Shown: piece by piece, positions 29,669 through 52,349 of the stretch
How positions within the stretch are numbered: the stretch's first letter is position 1
Layout: each line of letters opens with the position of its first letter
Source: Chloroflexota bacterium
GTDB taxonomy: Bacteria; Chloroflexota; Anaerolineae; Anaerolineales; Villigracilaceae
Length of the DNA: 64,000 nucleotides
Direction: 5' to 3'
NCBI GenBank assembly: GCA_037440925.1
Contig: JBBITF010000006.1
Location: 1-64,000, forward strand
The notes under the pieces: model-generated
The model's input: only the letters and a program-made list of their open reading frames with translations
What the model was told of the DNA's origin: nothing
Database searches by the model: none
Translations under genes and position numbers: made by a program

Positions 29669-29699
29669 GAGGGGAAAGCAAAGAGCATGCTTTCCCCTC
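29669..29699 (+). other. Stem-loop in the transporter-dsrA spacer
   Basis: An 11-bp stem GAGGGGAAAGC/GCTTTCCCCTC with a 9-nt loop. No T-tract follows, so this is not a canonical terminator. It may be an mRNA processing or stability element. Confidence 0.35.
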
Positions 29700-29740
29700 T
29701 GCATAAAAACGGACTTCAGCGGTCGCATGGAGGTAAAAAT

Positions 29741-30928: not shown

Positions 30929-31986
30929 TGGCCCGCACTGACTTTGGCCCTCCGAACTATAAAGACATGCTTCCGCCTGTCATTGCAAAGAACTATGGAC
31001 AGTGGAAGTATCACGAGCGTGTCAAACCAGGCGTTTTGAAGCATGTTGCCGAATCTGGCGATGAGTTGTATACCGTCCGCGTCGGTTCTTGCCGCCTGGT
31101 CAGCACCGACTGGATCCGCGATGTGTGCCAGATTGCCGACAAATATTGCGGCGGCCACCTGCGGTTTACCAGCCGCCACAACCTAGAGTTTCTGGTTTCT
31201 GACAAGAATCAGGTTGAACCTCTGCTGGCTCATCTCAAGCAAGAAGGCTACGCCGTAGGCGGCACCGGCCATGCCATCAGCAACCCGGTGCATACTCAGG
31301 GGTGGATTCACTGCCATACGCCCGCCACCGACGCCTCCGGCATTGTCAAGGCCGTGATGGACGATTTGTTCGAGTATTTCACAGATTGGAAGTTGCCGGC
31401 CTATTGCCGCATTTCTCTGGCTTGTTGTTTGAACATGTGCGGCGCGGTGCATTGCTCCGACATCGCCATCCTGGGTATCCATCGCAAGCCGCCGCACATC
31501 AATCACGATACGGTGCGCGCTAAATGCGAAATCCCCAACGTGATTGCGGCTTGTCCTACTGGCGCCATTCGTCCTGACCCCAAGGAAAAATCGCTGACGG
31601 TCAATGAAGAGAAGTGTATGTACTGTGGCAACTGCTATACCATGTGCCCGGGCATGCCGTTGGCCGATCCAGAGGGCGATGGCGTATCCATTTGGGTGGG
31701 CGGCAAGATTTCGAGCGCGCGCACAGCCCCCAAATTCTCTCGTCTGGTCATCCCTTACTTGCCCAACAATCCGCCGCGCTGGCCCGAAGTGACCGCGGCC
31801 GTGCGCAACATTGTTGAGACTTGGGCAAGCCATGCCCGCAAGCACGAGCGCATGGGCGAGTGGATTGACCGTATTGGTTGGGAACGATTCTTCGATCTGA
31901 CAGGCATTCCGTTCACTGTCCAACTCATTGACGACTTCACTCTGGCTACTGAAACCTTCCGGTCAACGCCTGCCTTCAAGTGGTAA
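30928..31986 (+). CDS. dsrB: Dissimilatory sulfite reductase beta subunit
   Basis: N-terminus TDFGPPNYKDMLPPVIAKNYGQWKYHE. Cysteine motifs are HCHTPATD, CCLNMCGAVHC, CPTGAI and CMYCGNCYTMCP. The start shares one base with the dsrA TAA. Confidence 0.95.
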   Translation: MARTDFGPPNYKDMLPPVIAKNYGQWKYHERVKPGVLKHVAESGDELYTVRVGSCRLVSTDWIRDVCQIADKYCGGHLRFTSRHNLEFLVSDKNQVEPLLAHLKQEGYAVGGTGHAISNPVHTQGWIHCHTPATDASGIVKAVMDDLFEYFTDWKLPAYCRISLACCLNMCGAVHCSDIAILGIHRKPPHINHDTVRAKCEIPNVIAACPTGAIRPDPKEKSLTVNEEKCMYCGNCYTMCPGMPLADPEGDGVSIWVGGKISSARTAPKFSRLVIPYLPNNPPRWPEVTAAVRNIVETWASHARKHERMGEWIDRIGWERFFDLTGIPFTVQLIDDFTLATETFRSTPAFKW

Positions 31987-31997
31987 AGAGGTGAAGC

Positions 31998-32207
31998 ATG
32001 AGCGACGAAGTGACGGAGGAACTGAAGAATCAAATCGTTGAATTCTTCAAACAAAAAGGGAAGATGATGACCCATCGTGATGTTGCCAAAGGCCTTGACC
32101 TGGATCAAAAACTGGTCAAGAAGGCGCTGACAGAATTAGTCAATGCCGGCACATTGGAATTTACTTCCTTTGGCGGCGCCACGTTCATCAAACTCCCCGG
32201 CACATGA
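31998..32207 (+). CDS. dsrD: DsrD (small winged-helix protein of reductive dsr operons)
   Basis: 69 aa, located directly after dsrB. KKALTELVNAGTLEFTSFGGATF matches the DsrD KKxLxxLVxxxxLE(Y/F) pattern. Confidence 0.85.
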   Translation: MSDEVTEELKNQIVEFFKQKGKMMTHRDVAKGLDLDQKLVKKALTELVNAGTLEFTSFGGATFIKLPGT

Positions 32208-32251
32208 CAGACCGAAGCGCTTTGTAAGATATTCTTTTTGAGGAGGTAGAT

Positions 32252-32569
32252 ATGCCTGTAGTCGAACTGAATGGGATACAGGTAAGTGTGGACGAGGATG
32301 GTTTCATTGAAGACCCTTCCGTATGGAATGAGGAATTGGCGGCTGCCATTGCCAAAACCGAGGAAGTCAATGAATTGACCGAGGATCATTGGAAGGTAGT
32401 CAAGTATCTGCGGGAATATTACCTGCAATTTGGCATTGCGCCCATGATCCGTAAACTCTGCAAAGAGACCGGTTACGACCTCAAAACCATTTACGAGTTA
32501 TTTCCAAGCGGTCCAGCCAAAGGCGCCTGCAAGATTGCTGGCTTGCCCAAGCCCACTGGCTGCGTCTAG
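32252..32569 (+). CDS. dsrC: DsrC (TusE/DsrC/DsvC family) with both C-terminal arm cysteines
   Basis: The C-terminus GACKIAGLPKPTGCV has the two conserved Cys residues 10 residues apart. GAGGAGG RBS. Confidence 0.95.
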   Translation: MPVVELNGIQVSVDEDGFIEDPSVWNEELAAAIAKTEEVNELTEDHWKVVKYLREYYLQFGIAPMIRKLCKETGYDLKTIYELFPSGPAKGACKIAGLPKPTGCV

Positions 32570-32675: not shown

Positions 32676-33422
32676 ATGAGCACAAGCGATATTTTGTGGA
32701 CCCTGCTTTCCCTCTTTTTCATTGGTCTGGCTTATTTTGCAGCCTTTTCTTTCGTGGCAGGTTTGCTGTGGAAATTCTACGGTTACTTGCGCACTCCCAT
32801 GCCTTTACCTCATGCTGTGACACCTGCTCCTAAGACAGAAGGGGGAGCCGTCTTACGCGTGTTAGGAGATGTCACCCTCTTCTCCAACCTGTTCAAAGCC
32901 GATAAATGGTTGTGGGGAGGTGCGTGGCTCTTCCATGTTGCCTTGGCTGCGGTTTTATTCCGTCACTTGCGTTATTTTACTTACCCCGTGCCTGGACTGG
33001 TCCTATACATGGAATCGGTGGCGCTATTCTTTGGCAGTTTGCTGGGGGCGGCTGCCTTGTTCCTGTTTTGGCGGCGGCTGGCTTTGCCGCGCACACTCTA
33101 TATTTCTAATATCCCCGATTATTTTGCCCTGGCTTTGTTGGGCGTGATTGCCGGCAGTGGCCTGATGGTGAATTACTGGTTGCGCGTCAATATCGTAGAT
33201 GTCAAAGGCTTTATTTTGGGATTGATGACTTTCCATCCTGTCGAAGTACCTCATCATCCCTTGTTCCTCTTGCATTTACTGGCCGTCCTGATTTTGATGA
33301 TTTACTTCCCTTTCAGCAAGTTGCTCCATGCAGGCGGTCTGATTTTCAGCCCCTCGCGTCATCAGCCTTTTCAGGTGCAGGTGCGCGGCAAGCGTTATAT
33401 CAATCCAGTTGACCGTTATTGA
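32676..33422 (+). CDS. dsrM: DsrM (NarI/HdrE-like dihaem b membrane subunit)
   Basis: Five to six TM helices with conserved His residues (LFHVA, FRHLRY, PHHPLFLLH, LLHAGG). It lies immediately upstream of dsrK. Confidence 0.85.
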   Translation: MSTSDILWTLLSLFFIGLAYFAAFSFVAGLLWKFYGYLRTPMPLPHAVTPAPKTEGGAVLRVLGDVTLFSNLFKADKWLWGGAWLFHVALAAVLFRHLRYFTYPVPGLVLYMESVALFFGSLLGAAALFLFWRRLALPRTLYISNIPDYFALALLGVIAGSGLMVNYWLRVNIVDVKGFILGLMTFHPVEVPHHPLFLLHLLAVLILMIYFPFSKLLHAGGLIFSPSRHQPFQVQVRGKRYINPVDRY

Positions 33423-33433
33423 GAGAATAACCT

Positions 33434-34879
33434 ATGTCGAAATTCGATGAGACTCCGATTGTCAAAGACCCGGCAGTAAATGGCGTCTTGCGCCCGCCCA
33501 AACTCCGCGAACACGCTTCGGCAGAGGTGCAGTGTTATCCGAGCAAGCCCAAAGATACTTCGGCCATTGATTTGCCGACCGAATTGGTGCCGGATTGGAA
33601 AGAGCGTGCCATTGCCAGATTGGGCGAGTTGTTGGAAAAGAACCAGGCCTTGCGCGTCTACATGGACATCTGTGTGCGCTGCGGCGCCTGCACCGACAAA
33701 TGCCAGTTCTTCCTGGGGACGGGCGACCCGCAGAACTTCCCGGTGGCGCGCGCGGAACTGCTGCGAAAAGTCTATCGCCGCTACTTTACGCCGGCCGGTC
33801 TCTTCCCAGACCTGGGAGAGGCCGCCGATTTAGACGAAGAGATGCTCCAGAAGTGGTACACCTACTTCTACCAATGCTCCGAATGCCGCCGCTGTTCGGT
33901 CTTTTGCCCGTATGGCATAGATACTGCCGAAATTACCATTGCCGCGCGCGAGATCATGGCCTCGATTGGTGTCTCGACCAAATACATCACGGAAGTTGTG
34001 GCAAAGGTCTATGCTACTGGCAACAATCTGGGCATTCCGCCGGCTGCCTGGAAGGACAACTGCGAATTTCTCGAAGAGGATGTGCAGGCGGATACCGGCC
34101 TGCCTATCCGCTTCCCAGTCGATGAGAAAGGCGCCGAAGTTCTGCTGGTGCCGCCCTCGGCCGATAACTTTGCCAATACTGACACCATGATTGGCTATGG
34201 CAAACTCTTCCATTTCTTGGGCGTCAGTTGGACAACCAGCACCTACTGTAATGAAGGCGGTAACTTTGGCCTGTTCTTGAATTTTGCCAACTTGAAAAAA
34301 GTCAACCGCCGCATTCTGGATGCCGCCCGCGAATTGGGCGTCAAGACCATTATCTGGGGTGAGTGTGGACATGCCTGGCGGGCAGGCATTATGACGCCTT
34401 CGCTCAATGGCCCGATGGATGATTTCGATCCGCCTTATCCGTACCATATTAGCCAGTATATCGTTGACATGCTGCACAAAGGCGCTTTCGAGGGCCACAT
34501 AGACAAGTCGGCCAATGACCAGTATCTTGTCACCTATCATGACCCGTGCAATTCTGCGCGCGCGGGCTACCTCATCGAAGAACCGCGTGAGATCATCCGC
34601 GCCGTTTGTAACCGCTTTGTCGAAATGCCAGAAGGCACCATCCGCGAAAAGACTTTTTGCTGCGGCGCAGGCAACGGCCTGTTGACGGATGAGATTATGC
34701 CCATCCGCATGGCGGGCGGCAAACCGCGCGCCATGGCCGTCAAGCACACCGGCGCCAATTACCTGGCCACTGTATGTGCAATTTGCAAGGCGCAATTGCC
34801 CGAATCCATGCACTATTGGCAGGTGCCGGTCAAGGTGGGTGGCGTGATTGACTTGCTGGCGAACGCTCTCAAATTCTAG
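33434..34879 (+). CDS. dsrK: DsrK (HdrD-like Fe-S / CCG-domain catalytic subunit)
   Basis: Motifs: CVRCGACTDKC, CSECRRCSVFCPYGID, CGHAWR, HDPCNSAR, FCCGAGNG, CAICKAQL. Confidence 0.9.
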   Translation: MSKFDETPIVKDPAVNGVLRPPKLREHASAEVQCYPSKPKDTSAIDLPTELVPDWKERAIARLGELLEKNQALRVYMDICVRCGACTDKCQFFLGTGDPQNFPVARAELLRKVYRRYFTPAGLFPDLGEAADLDEEMLQKWYTYFYQCSECRRCSVFCPYGIDTAEITIAAREIMASIGVSTKYITEVVAKVYATGNNLGIPPAAWKDNCEFLEEDVQADTGLPIRFPVDEKGAEVLLVPPSADNFANTDTMIGYGKLFHFLGVSWTTSTYCNEGGNFGLFLNFANLKKVNRRILDAARELGVKTIIWGECGHAWRAGIMTPSLNGPMDDFDPPYPYHISQYIVDMLHKGAFEGHIDKSANDQYLVTYHDPCNSARAGYLIEEPREIIRAVCNRFVEMPEGTIREKTFCCGAGNGLLTDEIMPIRMAGGKPRAMAVKHTGANYLATVCAICKAQLPESMHYWQVPVKVGGVIDLLANALKF

Positions 34880-34894
34880 CCCTTGGAGACAGCC

Positions 34895-35197
34895 ATGCGC
34901 AAAGTAGCCTTGTCTCTCGTTGTATTCGGAATTCTGCTCTTGACGGTCCTCTTTTATCCGCGCTATGTGGAGAAACCCGTCAAGGACGGTGAAGGGCCGT
35001 TGGCGATTTACCTTGACCCCAGCCTGCCGGCGCCTGAATATCACAGCCCCTTAGACTGGTGGAAACGGAATCACAAGACGATCGTCAATCGCGGCGACCT
35101 GGACAGGCGCGATTGCCTGCAATGCCATGACCCGGCCACCTCTTGCAACAATTGTCACGCTTATGTGGGCGCGGCTGAGATTGTCGTTGCCCCCTAA
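34895..35197 (+). CDS. Membrane-anchored dihaem cytochrome c (occupies the dsrJ position but is not a trihaem DsrJ)
   Basis: N-terminal TM helix VALSLVVFGILLLTVLF and two CxxCH motifs (CLQCH, CNNCH). ATG 34895 lies behind GGAG; the track ORF begins at TTG 34883. Confidence 0.75.
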   Translation: MRKVALSLVVFGILLLTVLFYPRYVEKPVKDGEGPLAIYLDPSLPAPEYHSPLDWWKRNHKTIVNRGDLDRRDCLQCHDPATSCNNCHAYVGAAEIVVAP

Positions 35198-35659
35198 ATG
35201 GTGAGCGCTATGACGGATACTTCTGTTTCCTCTCCTAAACCTTCCATTTTCTCCCGCCGCCGCCAGTTTATTCAACTGGGCTTCTTGACGGTGGCAGCCG
35301 CCTGGCTGGGAACATGGCTGCAAGCGCGTCTCTTCCCGGCCGCCAGCGCCAGCCAGGAAGCTGCGCCGGTCTCTTTTCCATTGAGCGACTTGCCGGTTGG
35401 CGGAGCCAAAGCCATTACGTATGGCGGCATTCCTGTATTGGTATTGCGCACCCCGCAGAGTCTCCGCGCCTTCTCGTTGATTTGCACGCACCTGGGCTGT
35501 ATTGTGGAATGGCAAGATAACAAGAAGGAATTTTATTGCCCTTGTCACGATGGCCGCTATGATGAATTTGGCGATGTGTTGGCCGGCCCCCCGCCCATTC
35601 CGTTGGAGCAATTTGCCGTGCGCATCGAGGGCGAACAAGTCATCGTCGGCGAGGCTTGA
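35198..35659 (+). CDS. Tat-exported Rieske [2Fe-2S] protein
   Basis: Twin-arginine motif SRRRQFIQLG plus a hydrophobic anchor. Rieske boxes are CTHLGC and CPCHDGRY. Its ATG abuts the stop of the upstream gene. Confidence 0.9.
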   Translation: MVSAMTDTSVSSPKPSIFSRRRQFIQLGFLTVAAAWLGTWLQARLFPAASASQEAAPVSFPLSDLPVGGAKAITYGGIPVLVLRTPQSLRAFSLICTHLGCIVEWQDNKKEFYCPCHDGRYDEFGDVLAGPPPIPLEQFAVRIEGEQVIVGEA

Positions 35660-35674
35660 GGCAGGAGAATGAAC

Positions 35675-36049
35675 ATGAAACGTTTTCTAATTTTCTTCGG
35701 TTCACTGCTTGTGACTGTGGCGTTGCTGTTGGCCCTCTTGCCCGCTGCTACGGCCCAAGCCCTTCCCGAATATTCAGCGCAGACCGGGGAACCCTGCGCC
35801 TCTTGTCACATCAGCCCCTCGGGCGGCGGCCCCCGCGGCCCGCGCGGGCAGGCCTGGGTAGCCTCCGGCAAACCCGGCGCCGTGCCGGATACGCTCCAGG
35901 CGCTCGAATTGCTGGGCGTCGAATTGAGCGTGGATCCGGCCTATTTTACGGCAACAGGTTTCGAGGTCCAGGAACCGGAAGCGCTGCAGGTCGCTCCGGC
36001 CCAGAGCGTGCGCTTGTACCGTTGGTTGAGTCAATATGATGGCAATTAG
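35675..36049 (+). CDS. Secreted monohaem cytochrome c
   Basis: Sec signal peptide (LLALLPAATAQA) and a single CASCH. AGGAG lies 8 nt before ATG 35675; the alternative start is ATG 35669. Confidence 0.75.
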   Translation: MKRFLIFFGSLLVTVALLLALLPAATAQALPEYSAQTGEPCASCHISPSGGGPRGPRGQAWVASGKPGAVPDTLQALELLGVELSVDPAYFTATGFEVQEPEALQVAPAQSVRLYRWLSQYDGN

Positions 36050-36080: not shown

Positions 36081-38450
36081 ATGGAAAACTTCCCCTCTCA
36101 GACTCCTCCCTCAGAACTTTCCCGTCGTGATTTCATCAAATTTGGCGCCGCTGCCGCCATCGCCGGCGTTGGACTGAACGCTTTGCAGCCAGCGCAGCAG
36201 GCTACCTCGGTGCAAGCGGCGGTGGGTGAAGAGACGATTGTTAAAACGACATGCGCCTTGTGCCCCTCAGGCTGCGGCCTGGATGTGCGCGTGGTGAACG
36301 GCAAGGCGGTGAAAGTGGAAGGCAACCCGCTGCACCCGCTCAACCAGGGCGTATGCTGCCTGCGGGGACAGACCTCGTTGGAGGTGCTGTATAGCCCAGA
36401 GCGCATCCAACGCCCGCGCGTCCAGATGGGCGAGCGCGGTTCGGGCGATTGGAAAGAAATCTCGTGGGACGAGGCGCTTGAACTGGCGGCTGGCAAACTC
36501 GGTGAACTGCGCGCCGCTGGAAAGCCTCATAGCGTTGCGCTCATGCATGGCGAACTGCGCGGGCAAATGCGCCAGACGGTGCAGCGTTTCATGCGCGCCT
36601 ATGGCTCGCCGAATGTCATTTCGCGCGAGAGTTTGGGCGAAGGCGCGGCCCGTATGGCTTTATGGCTTTCACAAGGCGTAAACGCGCTGCCGGTCTACGA
36701 CATCAACAACGCCAATTATGTGTTGACCTTTGGGGGCAACCTGCTCGAATCCAGCCGCAACTTGATTGGCTATCTGGGCGCGACGGCTTTCATGCGGCGC
36801 GGACGCCCACAGCGCGGCAAACTGGTGGCCGTCCACCCGCGCCTTTCTCTGACCGGCATCAAGGCCGACGAGTGGGTGCCAATCCGCCCTGGCACGTATG
36901 GCGCGCTGGCTTTGGGCATGGCCAATGTCATCATCAACAGCAAACTATATGACGAAGCCTTCGTGCGCGACTTTACCTTTGGCTTCGAGGATTTCGAGGA
37001 CGCCGAGGGGACGTTGCACAAAGGCTTCAAGTCGCTGGTGTTGGAAACCTATACCCTCGAGCGCGTCTCGGCTATTACGGGCGTCTCTACCGATAAGATT
37101 GCCCGCATTGCGGGCGAATTTGCCACCAACCGCCCGGCGGTCGCCATGCTGCCCACCGAGGCGGGCGAACTCTCTAGCGGCAATGCGCTGTACACGGCGC
37201 TGGCCGTCCATGCCTTGAATGCCCTGGTTGGCTCGATAGACGTCAAGGGCGGCGTCCTCTTGCAGCGCTTCCCTAAATTGGCCGACTGGCCTGACTACAC
37301 CCTCGATGCGACAGCCCGCCTGGGAGAAAGCCGCGAGCGCATAGACGGGGCCGGCTCCCAATTCCCCTTGGCGCTATCGGCCTATCAGAATGTGCCAGAG
37401 CGCATCCTGGAGGGCAAGCCTTACCCCATCGAGGCCCTCTTCTTGCTGAACGCCAACCCGCTCTACGACCTGCCCAATGGCGGGCGTACCCTGGAAGCCT
37501 TGCAAAAAGTACCTTTTGTGGTCAGTTTTGCCTCCACCCTCGACGAAAGCGCGGCCTATGCCGACCTGATTTTGCCGGCCAGCACCTTCCTAGAAGTGTG
37601 GGGCGACGATTACCTGGAAGGCACGGGCTATGCGGGCATCTCCCTGCGCCAGCCGGCTGTTGCGCCGCTCCACGATACGCGCAATCCCGGCGACGTGCTG
37701 CTCGACCTGGCGCACCGCATCGGAGGTAATCTGGCAAAAGCCTTCCCCTGGGAAACCTACCAAGACCTGATCATGCAGCGCCTGTCTACCCTGGATTGGG
37801 AGAAATTGCAGGCCAACGGCAACTGGTCCGAACTGGTCTATTTCAACGCCCAACCCGGCAGCCCCGCCTGGAGCGAGGTGGTCGGACGTGACCGCTTGAA
37901 CGCTCCCAAAGATGGACGCTTCGACTTCTTCTCGCGCGAACTCTTCGCCCTGCTCGCTTCGGACTCGGACTTGGCCTGCTTGCCCCACTTCGAGATTCCC
38001 CCCGCCCTGGCCGACACTGCCGAGGGCGCCCTCGACTATCCTTTCCTGCTGGTCGTACAGCCGCTCATCACCCAGTCGCAGCAATGGCAAGGCATCGTCC
38101 CCACCTTGCAGGAGAGTTACGGCTTGCAAGGGCATGTCAAGTGGGACAGTTGGGTAGAAATCAGCCAGAAGGCAGCCGAAGCCCTCCACCTCGAGGATGG
38201 GCAGCGCGTGTGGGTAGAATCGCCGCTCGACCGCGTGCAGGCCACCGTTAGGGTATATGCTGGCATCTGGCCGAATGCCGTCTTCCTGCCGCCTGGACAG
38301 GGCCATCACACCTTTGTGCGCTGGGGCCGCAAATCTGAGCAGAACATGGTCGTCGGCGCCAACCCGAATGTTCTGAGTTTGTTTACGAGCGAGCCGTTGA
38401 GCGGACTGGCCGTAGCCGGCCCCACCCGCGTCCGTATTTATCCGGTTTGA
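36081..38450 (+). CDS. Tat-exported molybdopterin (Mo-bisPGD) oxidoreductase-family large subunit (PsrA/PhsA/QrcB/ActB1-like)
   Basis: Tat signal SRRDFIKFGAAAAIAG. The FS0 motif is CALCPSGC-x26-C(C)LRG. Length is 789 aa. FeS and NrfD subunits follow. Confidence 0.9.
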   Translation: MENFPSQTPPSELSRRDFIKFGAAAAIAGVGLNALQPAQQATSVQAAVGEETIVKTTCALCPSGCGLDVRVVNGKAVKVEGNPLHPLNQGVCCLRGQTSLEVLYSPERIQRPRVQMGERGSGDWKEISWDEALELAAGKLGELRAAGKPHSVALMHGELRGQMRQTVQRFMRAYGSPNVISRESLGEGAARMALWLSQGVNALPVYDINNANYVLTFGGNLLESSRNLIGYLGATAFMRRGRPQRGKLVAVHPRLSLTGIKADEWVPIRPGTYGALALGMANVIINSKLYDEAFVRDFTFGFEDFEDAEGTLHKGFKSLVLETYTLERVSAITGVSTDKIARIAGEFATNRPAVAMLPTEAGELSSGNALYTALAVHALNALVGSIDVKGGVLLQRFPKLADWPDYTLDATARLGESRERIDGAGSQFPLALSAYQNVPERILEGKPYPIEALFLLNANPLYDLPNGGRTLEALQKVPFVVSFASTLDESAAYADLILPASTFLEVWGDDYLEGTGYAGISLRQPAVAPLHDTRNPGDVLLDLAHRIGGNLAKAFPWETYQDLIMQRLSTLDWEKLQANGNWSELVYFNAQPGSPAWSEVVGRDRLNAPKDGRFDFFSRELFALLASDSDLACLPHFEIPPALADTAEGALDYPFLLVVQPLITQSQQWQGIVPTLQESYGLQGHVKWDSWVEISQKAAEALHLEDGQRVWVESPLDRVQATVRVYAGIWPNAVFLPPGQGHHTFVRWGRKSEQNMVVGANPNVLSLFTSEPLSGLAVAGPTRVRIYPV

Positions 38451-38477: not shown

Positions 38478-39164
38478 ATGCCCCGCTGGGGAATGGTCAT
38501 TGACCTGGACAAATGCTTTGCCTGCCAGAGCTGCACCGCAGCCTGCCGCATGGAAAACAACACGCCTGTGGCCGGAAAGAACCAGGCCGATATGGGGCGC
38601 GCCATCCTGTGGAACGAGGTCTTGCCGTTCATAGAAGGCGAGTATCCCAATATCCACACCACCATGTTGCCGCGCCCGTGTATGCACTGCGACAACCCAC
38701 CCTGCGTTAAAGTCTGCCCGGTGCAGGCGACTTACAAAAACGAAGAAGGCATCGTGCTGGTGAACTACGATCGCTGTATTGGCTGCCGCATGTGCACTGT
38801 GGCTTGCCCTTATGCCGTGCGTTACTTCAACTGGTACCCCCCCGAATGGCCCGAGGAACTGAAAGCGCACTTGAATCCAGAACCGGAAGTGCAGCCTCGT
38901 CCTAAAGGCGTGGTCGAAAAATGTACCTTCTGCTTCCAGCGTTTGCGCAAAGCGCGTGAAGAAGCCGATGCAGAAGGTCGTCCTTTCAACGCCACTGACT
39001 ACACCCCTGCCTGCGTGCAAACCTGCACCGGCCACGCCCGCTACTTTGGCGACCTGGATGACCCGAACAGCCTGGTCTCTAAACTGGCGCATAGCCCGCG
39101 CGCCTTCCGTATGTTCGAAGAACTTGGCACACAGCCCAAAGTCTATTACTTGAAGCAAGGGTGA
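38478..39164 (+). CDS. 4x[4Fe-4S] ferredoxin-type electron-transfer subunit (PsrB/DsrO/QrcC/ActB2-like)
   Basis: Four Cys clusters: CFACQSCTAAC, CMHCDNPPCVKVCP, CIGCRMCTVACP, CTFC...CVQTC. It has no signal peptide of its own, so it would need to be co-exported with the Tat subunit. GGAGG RBS. Confidence 0.9.
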   Translation: MPRWGMVIDLDKCFACQSCTAACRMENNTPVAGKNQADMGRAILWNEVLPFIEGEYPNIHTTMLPRPCMHCDNPPCVKVCPVQATYKNEEGIVLVNYDRCIGCRMCTVACPYAVRYFNWYPPEWPEELKAHLNPEPEVQPRPKGVVEKCTFCFQRLRKAREEADAEGRPFNATDYTPACVQTCTGHARYFGDLDDPNSLVSKLAHSPRAFRMFEELGTQPKVYYLKQG

Positions 39165-39168
39165 TGAT

Positions 39169-40497
39169 ATGGAACCCAAGAATCAAAACGTACAGCAAAT
39201 CCTTGCTCCCGTGCGCCGCGTTTCGGCTGGCGATTACCTGCTGTGGGGCGTCTTGCTTGCCTTGTTGTTGACCGGCCTGGGCGCCTGGACGTGGCAATTC
39301 ATCGAGGGCTTGGGCATCACCGGCATGAACCGCCCGGTCTATTGGGGCGTATACATTACCAACTTCGTTTTCTTCATCGGCCTGGCGCATTCCGGCACCT
39401 TCATCTCGGCCATCTTGCGCATCGCCGGGCAGAGTTGGCGCGCCCCGCTCACCCGCGCTGCCGAAGCCATCACGCTTTTCAGCCTGCCCTTCGGTGCTGG
39501 CTCCATCATTATTGATATGGGGCACCCCGAGCGCATCCTCAATGTCATTTTCTATGGACGTTACCAGTCGCCCATCCTGTGGGATGTGACAGCCGTCAGC
39601 CTGTATATGCTCTCCAGCATCATCTTCTTCTACTTCTCGCTCATCCCCGACATTGCGATTTGCCGCGACCGCCTCACCGACGCTCCGCGCTGGCAGCGCC
39701 GCATGTACCAAATCCTGGCTCTGGGTTGGAAGCACCATCCTGAGCAATATCGCCGTCTGGAAAAAGTGCTGGATGGTATGGCCGTTTTCATGACCATGTT
39801 GGTCGTCACCGTTCACACTGTGGTTTCCTGGCTGTTTGGCATGACCGTCCAACCTGGCTGGCATACCGCCTTGATCGGGCCGTTCTTCCTGTTGGGCGCC
39901 ATCCTATCGGGAACGGCGGCGGTGGTGATCACCTTGGCCATCCTGCGCAAGGTCTATCATCTGGAAAATGTCTTGCATGTCGGCCTGTTCAACTCTTTGC
40001 GCAAACTGTTGATTACCTTTGTCCTGGGCTGGCTGTACATGATGATCGCCGAGCATCTCACCATTGGTTATAGCAGCATGACCGAAGAGATGGTCGTCCT
40101 CAACGACAAATTCAGCGGCACCTTCTCGTTGATTTTCTGGAGCATGGCTACCTTCGTGTTTGGTCTTCCTTTGCTCATCTTCCTCTTCAAAGGCAAGAAC
40201 AATATCGGTTGGATGGTGTTTGCCTGTGTCCTCATCAATATTGGCATGTGGCTGGAGCGTTACATTGTCATCATCCCTACCGAGGTTAGCCCGCGCATGT
40301 TGCATGTCATGGGACAGGGACACTACCTCCCCCAACTGCCTGAAATCCTCATCACGATTGCCTGTTTCGCTGGCCTCATCCTGCTCTACGCGGTCTTTAC
40401 TCGTTTCTTCCCCATTGTTCCCATCTGGGAGACGGCTCAGGAACTGCCCGGCCACGCGCATTCTCAGCCGGCTCCGGCAGCCGCAGCCAGCGATTAG
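39169..40497 (+). CDS. NrfD-family quinone-interacting membrane subunit (ActC/QrcD/DsrP-like, 442 aa)
   Basis: About 10 TM helices. WGVYITNFVFFIGLAHSGTFISAILR, SPILWDV, GWHTALIGPFFLLGAILSG and GMWLERYIVIIP resemble the ACIII ActC/ActF and Qrc style of NrfD proteins. Confidence 0.9.
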   Translation: MEPKNQNVQQILAPVRRVSAGDYLLWGVLLALLLTGLGAWTWQFIEGLGITGMNRPVYWGVYITNFVFFIGLAHSGTFISAILRIAGQSWRAPLTRAAEAITLFSLPFGAGSIIIDMGHPERILNVIFYGRYQSPILWDVTAVSLYMLSSIIFFYFSLIPDIAICRDRLTDAPRWQRRMYQILALGWKHHPEQYRRLEKVLDGMAVFMTMLVVTVHTVVSWLFGMTVQPGWHTALIGPFFLLGAILSGTAAVVITLAILRKVYHLENVLHVGLFNSLRKLLITFVLGWLYMMIAEHLTIGYSSMTEEMVVLNDKFSGTFSLIFWSMATFVFGLPLLIFLFKGKNNIGWMVFACVLINIGMWLERYIVIIPTEVSPRMLHVMGQGHYLPQLPEILITIACFAGLILLYAVFTRFFPIVPIWETAQELPGHAHSQPAPAAAASD

Positions 40498-40515: not shown

Positions 40516-40704
40516 ATGAACATTGGCGGTTTGGTTCACGCATATTTCGACAATGCCGGCCCGGGCGGAGTCTTTGTCTTGCTGGTTGTCGGCGTTGCCT
40601 GCACTACCTACTACCTCCTGGCCCGCTGGTTCGTAGCCGGCGGTAGAACAGAGAGCCAGGCAGTTCCTTCTACCGATGAACAACCTGTGAGCATGGACGA
40701 ATGA
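40516..40704 (+). CDS. 62-aa single-TM protein (ActD-like position)
   Basis: AGGAGG RBS, one TM helix (VFVLLVVGVACTTYYLL), and a 4-nt ATGA overlap with the next gene. Confidence 0.55.
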   Translation: MNIGGLVHAYFDNAGPGGVFVLLVVGVACTTYYLLARWFVAGGRTESQAVPSTDEQPVSMDE

Positions 40705-42791
40705 AACGACGAATTCTGCTTCCCTCCCTGGTCTTCCTGGCGGTCCTGACGCTGGCCGTCGGCTCCGTCTCCGCTTCCTCCCTCGACTTCAGCCTGCCTG
40801 CCTCGGCCGAAGGAGAGACTCTCGTCTCCGGCAATTACTGCGCCTCCTGTCATCTGACCGATGACCCGCGCCTGGCGTCTGCCACGGCTTGGAAAGGCGG
40901 CATCCAAAGCAAAGTCAACTCGCCCTGCCCGGCAGCCATCAAAATACACGAAGAACTATATTACACCGAACGGTTGCTGCTCATGATCGAACGCGCCGAA
41001 AACGCAGTTGGCCCCTTGCCCGAAAAGAGCCAGGCTCGTTTGGAGGACTATACCCAGCGTTACAGCCGTATGCTCGATACGCCTGTCGGCAGCCTGGACG
41101 CTTTCGTCAGTGAAGCCCAGTCAACTCGTTATCAGTTGAACAAGGCCTATGCTGCGCTCAATCAAATGGCGCAAGACGCCAAACAGCGCACAATCTTGAC
41201 GTATGCGGCGGCGATTACCTTGATTGTGCTTGGCTCATTGGCCTGGGGCGTGTACAACTCCCGCGCGCTGGCCTCTGGAAAGGTGAGCCGATCTTGGGGG
41301 CTATTCTGGCGTGTGCTGTTTATCGTGGCTGTTGTGGCGTTCTTTACCTTGCCTTTCTTCCGTGTGCCGGCCGAAGAGGTGGTGATGACCACTGCCGAAC
41401 AGCAGGAAGCCCAGGCAACCCTCGATGCCGCTCAACGCGCAGCCGACGCTGCCGACCGTTCGCAGGCGCGCGCCTGGATGTTAGCCCGCGTTGCGGCTGC
41501 CTATGCCGAAATGGACGCCGCCCAAGCCCAGGCTATCCTGGATGAAGCGCTGACCTCGCTCGACGTAGCCCGCAAGAACGAAGAAGCCCTGTGGGGGCAA
41601 AGCCTGGTCGTGCAAGAAGTGACGGTTGGCACCAAAATCGAAATGGAATCGGCCGGCCTCATCACCGCCGACCTGAACGCTGCCCGCGCCCGCGCCTGGG
41701 CCTTGCCGCTGGTTGCCCGGCAGTGGAACGCCCTCGATCCAATCAAAGCCGCCGCCCTCTTACAGGCCGAACAGGACGCCCTGATTGGCCAAGAAGGCCT
41801 CTACCGTGATTTACAATTGCGCGCCCTATCGCTGGCCTGGGTCGAAGTGAATCCTTCCAAGGCCGCCCCTGCTGCCGCCCAAATACAGGACGCTTCCCTG
41901 CGCGCCTGGACCTTCCGTGAACTGGCGGACCTGACCCACAACCCCTCACTCTATGACAAAGCCCTCCAGGCTGCGCGTGAAATCACGGACCCTGTCCAGA
42001 AAGCGCGCGCCCTGCGAGAGATTGCCCACTCTTCTGGCAAGAGCGCCCTTTTCGAGGAAGCCCTGACCGCGCTAGATGGCGTGACCGACCCCGCTTTGGC
42101 CTATGCCCTCAGCGACCTGGCCGCTGCCTGGGGCAACGCTTCTCTGGTCGAAAGAATCGCCTACCCCGATGCCCGCGCCAGCGCCTTGCTGCGCATGGGA
42201 GAATACCCCTCCGCTTGGGAGGCGGCGGCAGGCATCGCTGATCCTTACGAACAGGCGCGCGCCCAAGCCGCCATTGCTTCTGCCTGGGGCAATGCCGATG
42301 CCGCCATGCAGATTGCTGTCCCCTTATACCGCGATTTGGCATTGCGCGATGTCATCCGAAAAACGGGAAATACGTCACTGGCAGAGGCAATTACCTCCAA
42401 GTACTATAAAGTCCAGGCTCTAACTGCTCTAGGCGAGACCGAATCTGCCCTCCAAGTAGCCGCCGACCTGGGCGAAACCTACCCCTTGGTTGATTTGGCT
42501 GTCCATTTGTCCGCCTCCAATCCGCAGGCGGCGTTGGCCTTGGTCGAGCAGATGAAGCGCGAAAGCGACAAAGCCATTGCCTTGCAGGCTATTGCTGTTG
42601 CCTCGCAGGACCCGTCGCTCATCGAACAGGCGCAGGGCATGGCACTGGCCGCCCGCGTGCGCGGCGACTCGCTGGCCCCGGCCCAGGCTTTGCTCGATCT
42701 TGCAAATGCCCTTCTGGAAGTAGATGTCAAATACGCAGAAGCAGCCTTTCGTCAGGCGTATGAAGCGGCGCAGCGCATTGCAACCAAATGA
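40701..42791 (+). CDS. Monohaem cytochrome c domain + two TM helices + ~450-aa Ala-rich helical-repeat (HEAT/TPR-like) domain protein
   Basis: Signal peptide, a single CASCH, two TM helices (ILTYAAAITLIVLGSLAWGVY and LFWRVLFIVAVVAFFTLPFF), then repeated ~30-aa units of the form D-x-x-x-(R/K)A-x-AL-x-x-IA-x-x-W. Confidence 0.75.
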   Translation: MKRRILLPSLVFLAVLTLAVGSVSASSLDFSLPASAEGETLVSGNYCASCHLTDDPRLASATAWKGGIQSKVNSPCPAAIKIHEELYYTERLLLMIERAENAVGPLPEKSQARLEDYTQRYSRMLDTPVGSLDAFVSEAQSTRYQLNKAYAALNQMAQDAKQRTILTYAAAITLIVLGSLAWGVYNSRALASGKVSRSWGLFWRVLFIVAVVAFFTLPFFRVPAEEVVMTTAEQQEAQATLDAAQRAADAADRSQARAWMLARVAAAYAEMDAAQAQAILDEALTSLDVARKNEEALWGQSLVVQEVTVGTKIEMESAGLITADLNAARARAWALPLVARQWNALDPIKAAALLQAEQDALIGQEGLYRDLQLRALSLAWVEVNPSKAAPAAAQIQDASLRAWTFRELADLTHNPSLYDKALQAAREITDPVQKARALREIAHSSGKSALFEEALTALDGVTDPALAYALSDLAAAWGNASLVERIAYPDARASALLRMGEYPSAWEAAAGIADPYEQARAQAAIASAWGNADAAMQIAVPLYRDLALRDVIRKTGNTSLAEAITSKYYKVQALTALGETESALQVAADLGETYPLVDLAVHLSASNPQAALALVEQMKRESDKAIALQAIAVASQDPSLIEQAQGMALAARVRGDSLAPAQALLDLANALLEVDVKYAEAAFRQAYEAAQRIATK

Positions 42792-42812: not shown

Positions 42813-43196
42813 ATGTTGAATGAATATACCGGTAAGCGCGTTCTTGTGATTGCCACCTTTGGTTCTGCTAACCCAGAGCGCGGCCCCGGTCCATTTGTCT
42901 TTGCCGGCGAAGCCGCCAGGGGCGGCGCTGAAGTCATGCTCATCTTTGTCTTGCAAGCGCCGCTGCTCCTCAAGCGGGGCGTTGCGGAGAAATTGTATGC
43001 CAAACAAGGCGGGCGTACCATCCGCGAATTCATTGATGATGCCCTGCGGCTTGGGGTAAAATGCTATGTGTGTGATACGGCGTTGCAACTTTGCGACATG
43101 ACGCCCGAAGACTTGATTGAAGAAGTGGACGAACTGGTCGGCCCCAGTTTCTTGATCAAACAAGGATTACAGGCTGATCTGGTTCTCTCTTTCTAA
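42813..43196 (+). CDS. DsrE/DsrF-like family protein
   Basis: 127 aa with a DsrE-fold pattern: KRVLVIATFGS..., central cysteines VKCYVCDTALQLC, and C-terminal FLIKQGLQADLVLSF. Confidence 0.65.
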   Translation: MLNEYTGKRVLVIATFGSANPERGPGPFVFAGEAARGGAEVMLIFVLQAPLLLKRGVAEKLYAKQGGRTIREFIDDALRLGVKCYVCDTALQLCDMTPEDLIEEVDELVGPSFLIKQGLQADLVLSF

Positions 43197-43215
43197 AAAA
43201 CCATTTGGAGGTAGT

Positions 43216-43416
43216 ATGTTCATCGTAACCATTGATATCCAAAAATGTAAAGCCTGCGGTGATTGCGTGGAAAATTGCCCTCAACAGGCCATTGCCATCA
43301 CCGAAGAAGGCGGCAAAAAGTATGCCATGTTTACCGGTAGTCCCGATGATTGTATTGGCTGCTTATCCTGCGAATCTTCTTGTGAAGAAGGCGCCATTAC
43401 CGTTACCGAGTACTAA
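43216..43416 (+). CDS. 2x[4Fe-4S] ferredoxin
   Basis: CKACGDCVENCP and CIGCLSCESSC. GGAGG RBS. Confidence 0.85.
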   Translation: MFIVTIDIQKCKACGDCVENCPQQAIAITEEGGKKYAMFTGSPDDCIGCLSCESSCEEGAITVTEY

Positions 43417-43463
43417 TCGCGCTGTTTTCTCCTCTTACGCTAACGGCTGGATGTATTCCCCTG

Positions 43464-44888
43464 ATGACTGCTCGAACCCGTCATGCGCCTCGTCTGGTCA
43501 TTGCGGCGCCCCAGGGTCGAAGTGGAAAAACCACCCTGACCTTGGGATTGTGCGCCGCATTCAAAGCGCGCGCGCTGACCATCCAGCCCTACAAAAAAGG
43601 ACCCGATTACATTGATCCCTCCTGGCTGAGTGAAGCCGCTGGAACCCTCTGCCGTTCCCTAGACCCTTTCTTTTACGAAAAGCCCGAAGAACTCTTACGG
43701 GCTTTTCTGCGCTCTGCTCCTCAAGATGGGGTGAGCCTGATCGAAGGCAATCACGGCTTGTTTGACTCCTTCGATGAAAGCGGACGAGGTAGCACGGCTG
43801 CGGTTGCGCGCACGTTGCAGGCTCCCCTCCTGTTGGTGATCAATGCCGCCCGCATGGGGCGCAGCGCCGCGGCCATCGTGCATGGCTGTCAAACCTTCGA
43901 GCCAGAAACGAACATCGCCGGCGTGGTTCTGAACAACGTAGCGCAAGGTCGCCACGAGGCCCGTATGCGCCAGGCCATTGAAAGTCGCTGCGGTGTGCCT
44001 GTATTGGGCGCCATTCCACGCGACGAAACCCTGACCATCCCCGACCGTCACCTGGGATTGGTGCCTCGCGCCGAACAAGACGCGCTTCTTCCCGCCATCA
44101 CAGCCTGCCGGCAGACTATCGAGCGCTACCTCGACCTCGATGCTGTCCTGGCTATAGCCCGGGCTGCGCCTGCTTTACCCGCTCCCTCTCCGGCCTCCTC
44201 CGCGGCCCAGCCGGTCTCGCATCGGCCGCTCATCGGCGTCCTGCGCGACCGTGCCTTTACCTTCTACTACCCTGAAAATTTAGAAGCCCTGGAAGAAGCC
44301 GGTGCCGACCTGCTCTTCCTGGACGCTTTGCGTGACGCCGAATTGCCCCCTGTAGACGCCCTCTACATCGGCGGCGGCTTCCCCGAAATATTCATGGACG
44401 AGTTGTCTGCCAACGTTTCTCTGCGCCGCGCCATCCGCGAAGCCATCGAAAACGACTTGCCGGTCTACGCCGAATGCGGCGGCCTGATGTACCTCTCCCA
44501 GCGCATTGTGTGGGGCGAAAAATCGGCCGAGATGGTGGGCGCCTTGCCCTGCGAAATCGAAATGACCTCCAAACCCCAGGGACATGGCTACGTAACTGCC
44601 CAGGTGGAGGCCGAGAATCCTTTTTTCTCGCCGGGCCTGCTCTTGCGTGGACATGAGTTCCACAACTCGCGGCTTGTAATGCTCCCTGGCAACCGCCTTG
44701 CAACGGCTTATCGCCTCTTGCGCGGCAATGGAGTAGGCGATGGCCGCGATGGGCTTCTTTACCGTAACACATTGGCTTCTTACACTCATTTGCATTCTGG
44801 CGGAGCGCCTGACTGGGCCGTTGGCCTGGTTCATCGGGCGCAGGTTTATCGAGAAAACCGCCTACAAGCAGAAATGGATAACAGATGA
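43464..44888 (+). CDS. dsrN: Cobyrinic acid a,c-diamide synthase family protein, DsrN (sirohaem amidase) by context
   Basis: P-loop APQGRSGKTTLTLGL with KKGPDYIDPSW, and a C-terminal glutamine-amidotransferase part (YAECGGLMYL, GHEFHNS). Located in the dsr operon. Confidence 0.85.
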   Translation: MTARTRHAPRLVIAAPQGRSGKTTLTLGLCAAFKARALTIQPYKKGPDYIDPSWLSEAAGTLCRSLDPFFYEKPEELLRAFLRSAPQDGVSLIEGNHGLFDSFDESGRGSTAAVARTLQAPLLLVINAARMGRSAAAIVHGCQTFEPETNIAGVVLNNVAQGRHEARMRQAIESRCGVPVLGAIPRDETLTIPDRHLGLVPRAEQDALLPAITACRQTIERYLDLDAVLAIARAAPALPAPSPASSAAQPVSHRPLIGVLRDRAFTFYYPENLEALEEAGADLLFLDALRDAELPPVDALYIGGGFPEIFMDELSANVSLRRAIREAIENDLPVYAECGGLMYLSQRIVWGEKSAEMVGALPCEIEMTSKPQGHGYVTAQVEAENPFFSPGLLLRGHEFHNSRLVMLPGNRLATAYRLLRGNGVGDGRDGLLYRNTLASYTHLHSGGAPDWAVGLVHRAQVYRENRLQAEMDNR

Positions 44889-50820: not shown

Positions 50821-50821
50821 G

Positions 50822-52314: not shown

Positions 52315-52349
52315 ATCGAAAAGAGCCTCCTACTCATTAAAGTTGGATA

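Follow-up and report, generated by a model that had tools for sequence, protein, structure and literature searches.

A 64,000-nucleotide stretch of DNA from a Chloroflexota bacterium of the Anaerolineales (family Villigracilaceae; assembly GCA_037440925.1, contig JBBITF010000006.1, positions 1 to 64,000; called the window here) encodes, inside a dsr operon, a protein with the fold of the enzymes that bind molybdenum bis(pyranopterin guanine dinucleotide) (Mo-bisPGD). This protein, the B-like subunit, has a glycine where its catalytic relatives have the cysteine that holds the metal, and it keeps both a twin-arginine translocation (Tat) signal and the complete [4Fe-4S] motif FS0. We consider it, with a probability of roughly 0.7, to be a subunit without catalytic activity that carries FS0 and serves a variant Dsr membrane complex in electron transfer, as a scaffold and in export. 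Most likely it is not a thiosulfate, polysulfide or tetrathionate reductase of the Psr, Phs or Ttr kind, because the ligand cysteine and the active-site residues of Psr and Arr have been lost from its sequence, and its partner subunits, which are of the alternative complex III (ACIII) and Qrc type, leave the reductase reading unsupported. Since FS0 is retained, we regard it as an Fe-S-carrying subunit and not as a bare scaffold; judged by its motifs, it is not a strict QrcB or ActB either, as both of these lack FS0. The gene and its main features are the following.

36081-38450, + strand: gene of the B-like subunit, 789 residues, Mo-bisPGD fold, Mo ligand absent and FS0 kept (Pfam, NCBIfam and structure matches)
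36081-36221, + strand: Tat signal peptide, residues 1 to about 47, with SRRDFIK at 14-20 (Pfam and motif)
36252-36365, + strand: FS0 [4Fe-4S] motif, C58-x2-C61-x3-C65-x26-C92-C93-L-R95 (sequence motif)
36603-36653, + strand: one-time metal-ligand loop, G175-SPNVISRESLG186EGAAR191, with Gly186 in place of the cysteine ligand (alignments to ArrA and PsrA)

The metal-ligand position and the cofactor site

The gene is real, as judged from more than 120 homologues at 67-91% identity in metagenome-assembled genomes (MAGs) of Chloroflexota and Anaerolineales, and species-representative genomes, when scanned, yielded 62 loci with at least 53% identity, which form the dsr-linked clade, together with 17 loci at 45-49%. 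An earlier note, made from the letters of this DNA, had recognized a Tat signal and a complete FS0 motif (C-x2-C-x3-C-x26-CC), and motif positions and Pfam confirmed both. The protein matches the Pfam domains Molybdop_Fe4S4 (PF04879), Molybdopterin (PF00384) and Molydop_binding (PF01568); its TAT_signal score lies just below the cut-off (22.6 versus 22.7 bits), and its twin-arginine motif, S14-R-R-D-F-I-K20, is kept as (S/T)RRDF(L/I)K in the orthologues displayed. In FS0, C58, C61 and C65 are followed after 26 residues by the pair C92-C93, and C58, C61, C65 and C93 are invariant across all complete orthologues, in which residue 95 is always Lys or Arg; the pure scaffold that the earlier note had tied to a loss of the FS0 ligands in orthologues is therefore contradicted.

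The complete cysteine inventory of the protein consists of residues 58, 61, 65, 92, 93 and 633, so that residues 94-632 are free of cysteine. C92 (window 36354-36356), which adjoins the FS0 ligand C93, is Cys in 62 of the 62 dsr-linked sequences and Leu in a sister clade (described below), and a Cys is found in this column in none of 141 representatives of the wider family. C633 (window 37977-37979) is Cys in 58 of the 62, and the residue here is Phe, Ser, Asn or Tyr in the sister clade and Phe in ArrA. The two cysteines may form a disulfide, ligate a haem or provide a thiol site beside FS0.

We set the position of the metal ligand by HMMER alignments of the B-like subunit to solved structures. 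The Mo-ligand cysteines of ArrA (6cz7, 'SSVC') and of PsrA (2vpw), which we take to be Cys173 of the latter (this number, like Arg332 and His145 below, was located by counting along the printed 2vpw chain), both align with Gly186, a residue 93 positions past C93, where the equivalent spacing in PsrA is 94. The loop around it contains the string NVISRESLGEGAARMALWLSQG, which begins at residue 178. The alignments to ArrA and PsrA, which are much closer relatives, are gap-free from the GSPN motif on, and two formate dehydrogenase alignments are shifted locally by two, with their cysteine landing on Ser184. Column 186 is occupied by Gly in 99, Ala in 12, Asp in 6, Asn in 2 and Glu in 1 of 120 close homologues, all with invariant FS0 cysteines, and among the 62 dsr-linked orthologues by Gly (39), Asp (10), Ala (8) and Glu (2), among others; neither Cys nor Ser was ever seen there in the 120 close homologues and the 62 genome loci. 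The earlier note had found no cysteine about 94 residues beyond FS0 and had concluded, from an alignment by eye, that the Mo ligand may be lost; the HMMER alignments and the 62 orthologues bear out both the observation and the conclusion, and the Mo-ligand cysteine is, as aligned here, absent from the protein.

No conserved Cys, Ser, Asp or Sec that might substitute for the metal ligand was found among the 62 orthologues. Ser184, a candidate resembling the serine of DMSO reductase and suggested by the formate dehydrogenase alignments, is present in 51 of the 62 and thus not invariant, and the possible carboxylate ligands Glu187 (53 of 62) and Glu360 (54 of 62) were rejected on the same ground; His252, found in 54 of the 62, is not invariant either.

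The surroundings of the ligand have changed as well. Arg332 and His145 of PsrA both align to glutamate (E360, within 'PTEAG', and E158, respectively), and the RGRY motif of ArrA is missing, 'LLRGRYSH' of ArrA standing opposite 'LMHGELRG'. When the family was compared with a catalytic set composed of PsrA, ArrA and eight Cys-bearing representatives, residues invariant in that set proved to be replaced at D105, R158, C186, Y203, D252, D273, R359/G360, K661, E666/G667/R668 and N672, and retained at K/R95, R108, E505, R226, R245, R747 and N763. The Asp of the 'DPR' motif, which is present in all five aligned catalytic structures (ArrA, PsrA, the acetylene hydratase Ahy and two formate dehydrogenases), is His in 54 of the 62 orthologues; from the beta-alpha-beta layout we infer that it would be the ribose-binding acidic residue of the nucleotide-binding fold. 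In domain IV the pattern K...EGR...N has become P...SQQ...I, by which a basic cluster is replaced. A further candidate, the Asp of 'PGTD' (D273, here Tyr), was dropped as a diagnostic loss, as the two catalytic formate dehydrogenases carry His and Asn at this position. The combination that according to the earlier note would mark a catalytic subunit, a conserved Cys, Ser or Asp ligand with intact residues for binding the guanine dinucleotide cofactor, is not what the alignments show: the ligand is absent, and the 'DPR' Asp has been replaced together with the basic cluster in domain IV.

The replaced cofactor and active-site positions are also more variable among the 62 orthologues (1.51 bits against a protein background of 1.00; permutation P of about 0.015), with zero entropy at the FS0 cysteines, and this raised variability indicates relaxed constraint, as expected after loss of a cofactor site. 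By sequence, the degeneration is intermediate and less than that of true QrcB: 55 of 68 core positions are kept, compared with 15 of 28 among the positions that bona fide QrcB has lost. We infer that the pterin is likely absent, and cluster N7 of NuoG offers a precedent for an FS0 kept in a protein without the molybdenum cofactor (Moco) (PMC5123574). Genes for Moco synthesis (moaA, moeA and mobA) and for TorD/DmsD-like chaperones were looked for and found neither in the 64-kb window, a negative that says nothing about the rest of the genome, nor among the called genes around two syntenic loci, L001 and L002. Even so, the negative would not discriminate between the readings, as genes for Nap and Nar have been reported from related MAGs (PMC8359478).

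Placement among Mo-bisPGD-fold proteins

The B-like subunit scores below every NCBIfam cut-off, with 336 bits for PhsA (cut-off 694), 293.5 for QrcB (440), 274 for ArrA (1600) and 130 for TtrA (1750); the arsenite_ox_L model gives 27 bits (359) and covers the FS0 region only, and NuoG is matched at 46 bits. Among solved structures its best sequence matches are ArrA (2.5e-70) and PsrA (4e-60), and those to ActB (about 1e-22 to 1e-24) are of partial coverage only. The AlphaFold2 (AF2) model has the expected fold (mean confidence, pLDDT, 76; predicted TM score, pTM, 0.83), and Foldseek ranked ArrA first (TM 0.77), followed by acetylene hydratase and PsrA.

From 1.84 billion cluster representatives searched, 150 relatives with 32-51% identity were retrieved, of which 141 are full length (these are 50%-identity representatives among the top matches). 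A complete FS0 together with a Cys-free ligand loop occurs in 101 of the 141; the few representatives with the canonical ligand cysteine score best as ArrA or PhsA, and the only two above the QrcB cut-off, P0218 and P0270 (501-508 bits), lack FS0 cysteines (CGV..S and SGI..S). The earlier note had proposed to place the protein in a tree of the DMSO reductase family. In a bootstrapped neighbour-joining tree, which is rough and contains no ActB, OmeA, SreA or TtrA reference sequences, the Cys-bearing Psr/Arr group stands apart from the rest in 37 of 41 replicates, and the B-like family lies with bona fide QrcB on the other, ligand-less side; it is monophyletic in 41 of 41 replicates and groups with P0121 and P0122 in 38 of 41. 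From the tree and the survey of FS0 and loop, the protein therefore belongs to a large, ligand-less and mostly FS0-keeping radiation that includes QrcB. The likeness to QrcB and ActB drawn in the earlier note stands in part: the ligand is lost and the partners are of the ACIII/Qrc type, but FS0 is kept and the QrcB score is under the cut-off.

Two details of the wider family may be recorded here. Representatives such as P0132, P0139, P0154 and P0171 have Gly or Ser for the fourth FS0 cysteine, which might give a 3Fe cluster, and some sequences within the ligand-less side have a Cys at shifted positions of the loop.

A module within the dsr operon

The B-like gene is one of a series of genes on the + strand that begins with dsrA and ends with dsrN, in the order dsrA, dsrB, dsrD, dsrC, dsrM, dsrK, dihaem cytochrome, Rieske protein, cytochrome c, B-like subunit, Fe-S subunit, NrfD subunit, 696-residue protein, dsrE-like and dsrN. 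Its other members are listed below.

29687-32569, + strand: dsrA, dsrB, dsrD (about 31998-32207) and dsrC (NCBIfam)
32676-34879, + strand: dsrM (32676-33422) and dsrK (33434-34879) (NCBIfam)
34883-35197, + strand: 104-residue membrane-anchored dihaem cytochrome c with CLQCH and CNNCH, H54 and H64 conserved, in the dsrJ position (motifs)
35198-35659, + strand: membrane-anchored Rieske [2Fe-2S] protein of the bc1/b6f type (CTHLGC...CPCH) with an RRRQF Tat-type N-terminus (Pfam Rieske)
35669-36049, + strand: 126-residue monohaem cytochrome c with a Sec signal and a single CASCH (list of open reading frames, homologue alignment)
38478-39164, + strand: four-cluster Fe-S subunit, DsrO/QrcC/ActB-C-terminus-like, without signal peptide (NCBIfam and structures)
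39169-40497, + strand: NrfD-family quinone-interacting membrane subunit, ActC/DsrP-like (Pfam NrfD, structures)
40701-42791, + strand: 696-residue protein: CASCH haem domain at the N-terminus, hydrophobic stretches, and a long C-terminal part rich in Ala (motif)
42813-44888, + strand: DsrE-like protein (42813-43196) and dsrN/CobB-type amidase (43464-44888), end of the cluster (Pfam, NCBIfam)

DsrA (579 bits), DsrB (526) and DsrC (124) all exceed their NCBIfam cut-offs, as does DsrK (526; cut-off 400), and DsrM falls below its own (142; cut-off 300). DsrD was assigned from its reading frame in the window, and the syntenic loci L001 and L002 have a DsrD Pfam match. DsrM is short (248 residues), and its match covers model positions 110-292.

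The gene order of the window recurs in two metagenome contigs, L001 and L002, and the order dsrABCMK, dihaem, Rieske, cytochrome c, B-like, Fe-S, NrfD and 696-residue protein is found in nearly all loci with enough flank (about 50 of 62), including those of 'Ca. Desulfolinea nitratireducens' (82% identity) and of a 97%-identical Anaerolineales MAG. Canonical dsrJOP was not detected in the dsr-linked loci. One orthologous locus with ample flank, on an Anaerolineales MAG 'chromosome' (CP070811.1, 67% orthologue), is alone in showing no upstream dsr or Rieske genes; we rejected it as a counter-example, given that its upstream 6 kb contains N-masked gaps, and the absence may be an assembly artefact.

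The genes for the Rieske, dihaem and 696-residue proteins are confined to dsr-linked loci, and a cytochrome c gene lies directly upstream of the B-like gene in dsr-linked and non-dsr clades alike. The sister clade (L003-L005 and L069-L085; 44-51% identity) has only cytochrome c, B-like, Fe-S and NrfD genes, without dsr, Rieske, dihaem or 696-residue protein genes; two of its loci, L003 and L004, adjoin large MtrC-like multihaem cytochromes and two-component regulators, and the modules of this clade apparently have no substrate-type partners. In this clade the ligand column is an invariant Asn, and D252 ('DPR'), D273, N672 and G746, lost in the dsr-linked clade, are kept; the sister clade may represent an intermediate stage of degeneration or have a different function.

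The partner subunits resemble those of ACIII, Qrc and DsrMKJOP to differing degrees. The Fe-S subunit reaches 267 bits for QrcC (cut-off 400) and 192 for DsrO (cut-off 200), and its best match among solved structures is the C-terminus of ActB (4.9e-55), which outranks ArrB and PsrB; the subunit reads CIGCRMC where ActB has the 3Fe motif CIGTRYC. Its sequence opens with the first cluster motif, and the DsrO model is matched from position 43 on, with its first 42 positions absent. Having no signal peptide, it is therefore expected to be exported together with a Tat-bearing partner, the B-like subunit, whose own Tat signal would be retained because the Fe-S subunit needs a Tat carrier. The NrfD subunit scores 108 against the DsrP model (cut-off 350) and matches ActC in solved structures (6f0k_C, 4.4e-63; 6btm_C, 7e-58), with ActF weak and, at E<=0.01, no match to PsrC among solved structures or to QrcD in NCBIfam. 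Ten-helix NrfD proteins of the ActC kind are associated with non-standard 'catalytic' partners (PMC6303296).

In the monohaem cytochrome, an alignment of 60 homologues conserves only the CxxCH motif and ALPEY..QTGEPC..CH.SPSGGG.R..RGQAWV, with no conserved Met, His or Cys as sixth haem ligand, so the haem is either five-coordinate or ligated by another subunit; the precedent of DsrO, which gives a ligand to DsrJ (bioRxiv 10.64898/2026.08.25.746951), suggests the latter. The Rieske protein has 8hn2 as its best solved-structure match (2.6e-21) and resembles Rieske proteins of the bc1/b6f kind more than it does AioB; among the families found, the small subunit of arsenite oxidase is a weak match. 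The dihaem protein has only a weak paired-CXXCH match, and a trihaem protein is not present; the 696-residue protein has no Pfam or NCBIfam match.

Other genes of the window lie around this cluster. A YeiH-like membrane protein (Cons_hypoth698, 28497-29612) is encoded directly upstream of dsrA, as also in L001 and L002, and a radical-SAM gene (44885-46015) follows dsrN; L002 has a radical-SAM/SPASM gene upstream of its cluster. A second redox module, of the Hmc/Tmc type, occupies 49015-53726 on the - strand and recalls the 'DsrOhPhCyt' complexes (bioRxiv 10.64898/2026.08.25.746951); its genes are as follows.

52350-53726, - strand: HmcF/DsrK-like CCG protein
51610-52314, - strand: HmcE/TmcC-like membrane protein
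50822-51613, - strand: four-cluster Fe-S protein of the Hmc/Tmc-type module
49015-50820, - strand: HmcC-like NrfD protein with a fused C-terminal cytochrome c3 domain

Proposed role and comparison with known systems

In the current model of DsrMKJOP, quinol (menaquinol) is oxidized at DsrP, and electrons pass from DsrO to DsrJ, DsrM and DsrK and on to the DsrC trisulfide (bioRxiv 10.64898/2026.08.25.746951). By analogy, we propose that in Anaerolineae a periplasm-facing, quinone-linked module resembling ACIII and Qrc takes the place of DsrJOP in the Dsr membrane complex, the ACIII/Qrc-like B, C and D subunits, the small cytochromes and the Rieske protein together substituting for it. Menaquinol would be oxidized at the ActC-like NrfD subunit, and the electrons would be passed down the chain of four [4Fe-4S] clusters in the Fe-S subunit, with FS0 as a possible further station, to the c-haems and the Rieske centre and finally to DsrM and DsrK. 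The B-like subunit could serve as a Tat carrier on which the signal-less Fe-S subunit hitch-hikes, as a docking scaffold for the small cytochrome or cytochromes, and as the holder of FS0, which may be a relay on the path or a structural cluster like N7 of complex I. The path is modelled on that of DsrMKJOP, and the physical association of the subunits is deduced from the gene order conserved in about 50 loci.

Several points weigh against this reading. The closest solved proteins, by sequence and by fold, are catalytic (ArrA, PsrA and Ahy) and not ActB, and the confidence of the AF2 model is low precisely in the cofactor-proximal loops. The Rieske centre normally has too high a potential for a path to DsrK, and for this reason a linear path is uncertain. 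Because the 15 of 28 catalytic-set-invariant positions that QrcB has lost and this protein keeps include R226, R245, R747 and N763, it may still bind a nucleotide or pterin; the assignment of cofactor-contact residues is itself drawn from conservation patterns and general knowledge of the fold. Arsenite oxidase binds Mo-bisPGD without a protein ligand (PMC10100899), and here too a Rieske gene is nearby. Of the earlier suggestion that the module is a pure electron-transfer complex and not a reductase, the non-catalytic part is supported, and the absence of the pterin is probable from the residue pattern.

The precedent of arsenite oxidase leads to an alternative that we regard as unlikely, in which the B-like subunit binds Mo- or W-bisPGD ligand-free, or through Glu187 or Glu360, and acts in the periplasm on thiosulfate, polysulfide, tetrathionate or sulfite, feeding or relieving DsrAB, with the Rieske protein as redox partner as in AioAB. 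The Rieske gene lies two genes upstream and weakly matches the arsenite oxidase small subunit, and AioA shows that an enzyme can be active without a ligand (PMC10100899); yet the arsenite_ox_L score is only 27 bits (cut-off 359), and FS0 has four cysteines here and is not of the 3Fe type. FS0 and the following K/R95 are strictly conserved, but S184, E187, E360 and H252 are not, and the ligand column drifts between Gly, Asp, Ala and Glu. Similarly, the retention of about half of the positions lost in QrcB (R226, R245 and N763 among them) and the catalytic nature of the nearest sequence and fold matches are set against the loss of the 'DPR' Asp and of the domain IV basic residues, the increased variability at the old site, the ACIII-type NrfD and Fe-S partners, a kind that accompanies non-catalytic B subunits (PMC6303296), and the lack, both across the window and among genes called near L001 and L002, of TorD/DmsD-like or Moco-synthesis genes.

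It is similarly improbable that the Rieske, cytochrome c, B-like, Fe-S and NrfD genes encode an independent ACIII-like quinol:cytochrome c oxidoreductase for oxygen or nitrate respiration that is merely co-located with dsr. Such a complex would agree with the ACIII-like membrane and Fe-S subunits, with the bc1/b6f type of the Rieske protein and with the nitrate reductases and terminal oxidases reported for 'Ca. Desulfolinea nitratireducens' (PMC8359478), but all four cysteines are present at the ACIII [3Fe-4S] motif, as in DsrO and PsrB. Sister-clade modules without dsr genes do exist, for example in Litorilinea aerophila, but the Rieske, dihaem and 696-residue protein genes are restricted to the dsr-linked clade, where essentially every well-flanked locus has the module in an unchanged order, with dsrK on one side and dsrE/dsrN on the other, and canonical dsrJOP was not detected.

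Least likely, in our view, is a new catalysis in which FS0, C92 and C633 form an Fe-S/thiol site for the reduction or transfer of periplasmic disulfide, persulfide or polysulfide, comparable to ferredoxin:thioredoxin reductase or to the CCG clusters found in DsrK and HdrB, or in which the monohaem cytochrome, itself lacking a conserved sixth ligand, receives its distal haem ligand from one of the two cysteines, which would recreate the His/Cys haem of DsrJ, a protein in which a haem has a His ligand from DsrO: the pair is nearly constant in the dsr-linked clade and missing from the sister clade, but it arose on a single branch and is thus weak evidence of coupling, it could be a plain structural disulfide of a periplasmic protein, and in N. 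vulgaris no growth phenotype followed from mutating the Cys ligand in DsrJ (bioRxiv 10.64898/2026.08.25.746951).

Returning to the non-catalytic subunit of a variant Dsr complex, a more speculative extension, to which we assign a low likelihood, is that the Anaerolineae complex is of a new type, with a Rieske-bearing ACIII/Qrc-like module in which the FS0 of the Moco-less B-like subunit, flanked by C92 and C633, is the point of electron entry from or exit to a partner-ligated haem, or the site of thiol or persulfide chemistry, and in which the Rieske protein and the low-potential Fe-S chain could split the two electrons of menaquinol in the manner of the bc1 Qo site and so help to reduce the DsrC trisulfide.

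These results bear on how the gene is read in genome surveys. Annotation pipelines label it 'molybdopterin-dependent oxidoreductase' or 'anaerobic selenocysteine-containing dehydrogenase', so that a survey based on homology may enter it as psrA, phsA or sreA and assign thiosulfate or sulfur respiration to Anaerolineae that carry dsrAB. The present analysis speaks against such a reading, and the gene should not be taken to show that these bacteria respire thiosulfate, polysulfide or tetrathionate. A review lists psrA/phsA/sreA for a MAG group from Black Sea suboxic water that includes 'Ca. Desulfolinea nitratireducens' (PMC8359478), and this call would be a mis-assignment if it is based on the orthologue of the present gene. 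More broadly, the widespread dsr operons of Anaerolineales have, in place of canonical DsrJOP, a conserved variant of eight genes that includes an ACIII-like module and a Rieske protein, which bears on how sulfite reduction is coupled to the quinone pool and to energy conservation in abundant bacteria of sediment and wastewater. Cofactor-less homologues of Mo-bisPGD enzymes are already known in QrcB, ActB and NuoG (PMC6303296, PMC10100899, PMC5123574). The retention of FS0 with loss of the ligand, and a conserved module within dsr operons that joins a Rieske protein to a Mo-bisPGD-like subunit, appear to be undescribed, as full-text literature searches gave no account of either. The survey result of 101 in 141 points to a large and little-studied radiation of FS0-only Mo-bisPGD-fold proteins; the cofactor-less members studied by experiment, such as QrcB and ActB, lack FS0.

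Among known systems, the catalytic enzymes PsrA, PhsA and ArrA share with the B-like subunit the Tat signal, the C-x2-C-x3-C-x26-C FS0 followed by Arg or Lys, and the four-domain fold. The B-like subunit differs from them in having Gly for the ligand Cys and in the loss of Arg332, His145, RGRY, the 'DPR' Asp and the domain IV basic residues; it reaches roughly half of the PhsA cut-off score and roughly a sixth of the one for ArrA, and its membrane partner is ActC-like and not PsrC-like as in PsrABC. AioAB likewise combines a Mo-bisPGD subunit without a protein metal ligand and a Tat-targeted Rieske protein (PMC10100899), but AioA has an intact cofactor pocket, catalytic activity and an FS0 of the 3Fe type, whereas the present module has four-cluster and NrfD partners and its match to the AioA model is limited to the FS0 region. 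In NuoG/Nqo3 the Mo-bisPGD fold is kept without cofactor, along with the FS0-equivalent N7 and an Arg-Glu surface salt bridge (PMC5123574), of which R108 and E505 are the putative equivalents here; NuoG differs in being cytoplasmic, a part of another complex and distant in sequence (46 bits), with N7 off the electron pathway.

QrcB, of the QrcABCD menaquinone reductase of Desulfobacterota, is similar in being a periplasmic, Tat-exported Mo-bisPGD homologue without metal ligand, and Qrc has a signal-less four-cluster protein, a 10-helix NrfD-type subunit and a c-type cytochrome partner (PMC6303296); QrcB also lies on the same side of the neighbour-joining tree. The differences are the score (293.5 bits against a cut-off of 440) and the full set of FS0 cysteines, which P0218 and P0270 do not have. 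QrcB is listed without cofactor, and QrcC carries one [3Fe-4S] cluster (PMC8076601), whereas the Fe-S partner described here has four Cys at the ActB 3Fe site and scores 267 against the QrcC cut-off of 400; the cytochrome partner has one haem where QrcA has six, and the genes lie inside a dsr operon with a Rieske protein. ACIII provides the closest solved relatives of the NrfD subunit (ActC, 4.4e-63) and of the Fe-S subunit (the ActB C-terminus, 4.9e-55), and it too has a Mo-bisPGD-like domain without catalytic role and haem c partners (PMC10100899). Unlike in ActB, however, the B-like and Fe-S subunits are separate reading frames (36081-38450 and 38478-39164) and not a fusion, and the B-like subunit is far less degenerate and keeps FS0; the cluster also has no [3Fe-4S] motif, pentahaem ActA or second NrfD protein (ActF), and it does have a Rieske protein.

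The system whose place the module would take, DsrMKJOP, matches it in position, directly after dsrMK and next to dsrABC, with DsrK above its cut-off, an Fe-S subunit near that of DsrO (192 versus 200), a DsrP-like NrfD subunit and periplasm-facing c-haems. It differs in that DsrO has a signal peptide where the Fe-S subunit has none, in that DsrM and the DsrP-like subunit of the window are divergent and score well under their cut-offs, and in that the trihaem DsrJ with its His/Cys haem is replaced by dihaem, monohaem, Rieske, 696-residue and Mo-bisPGD-like subunits.

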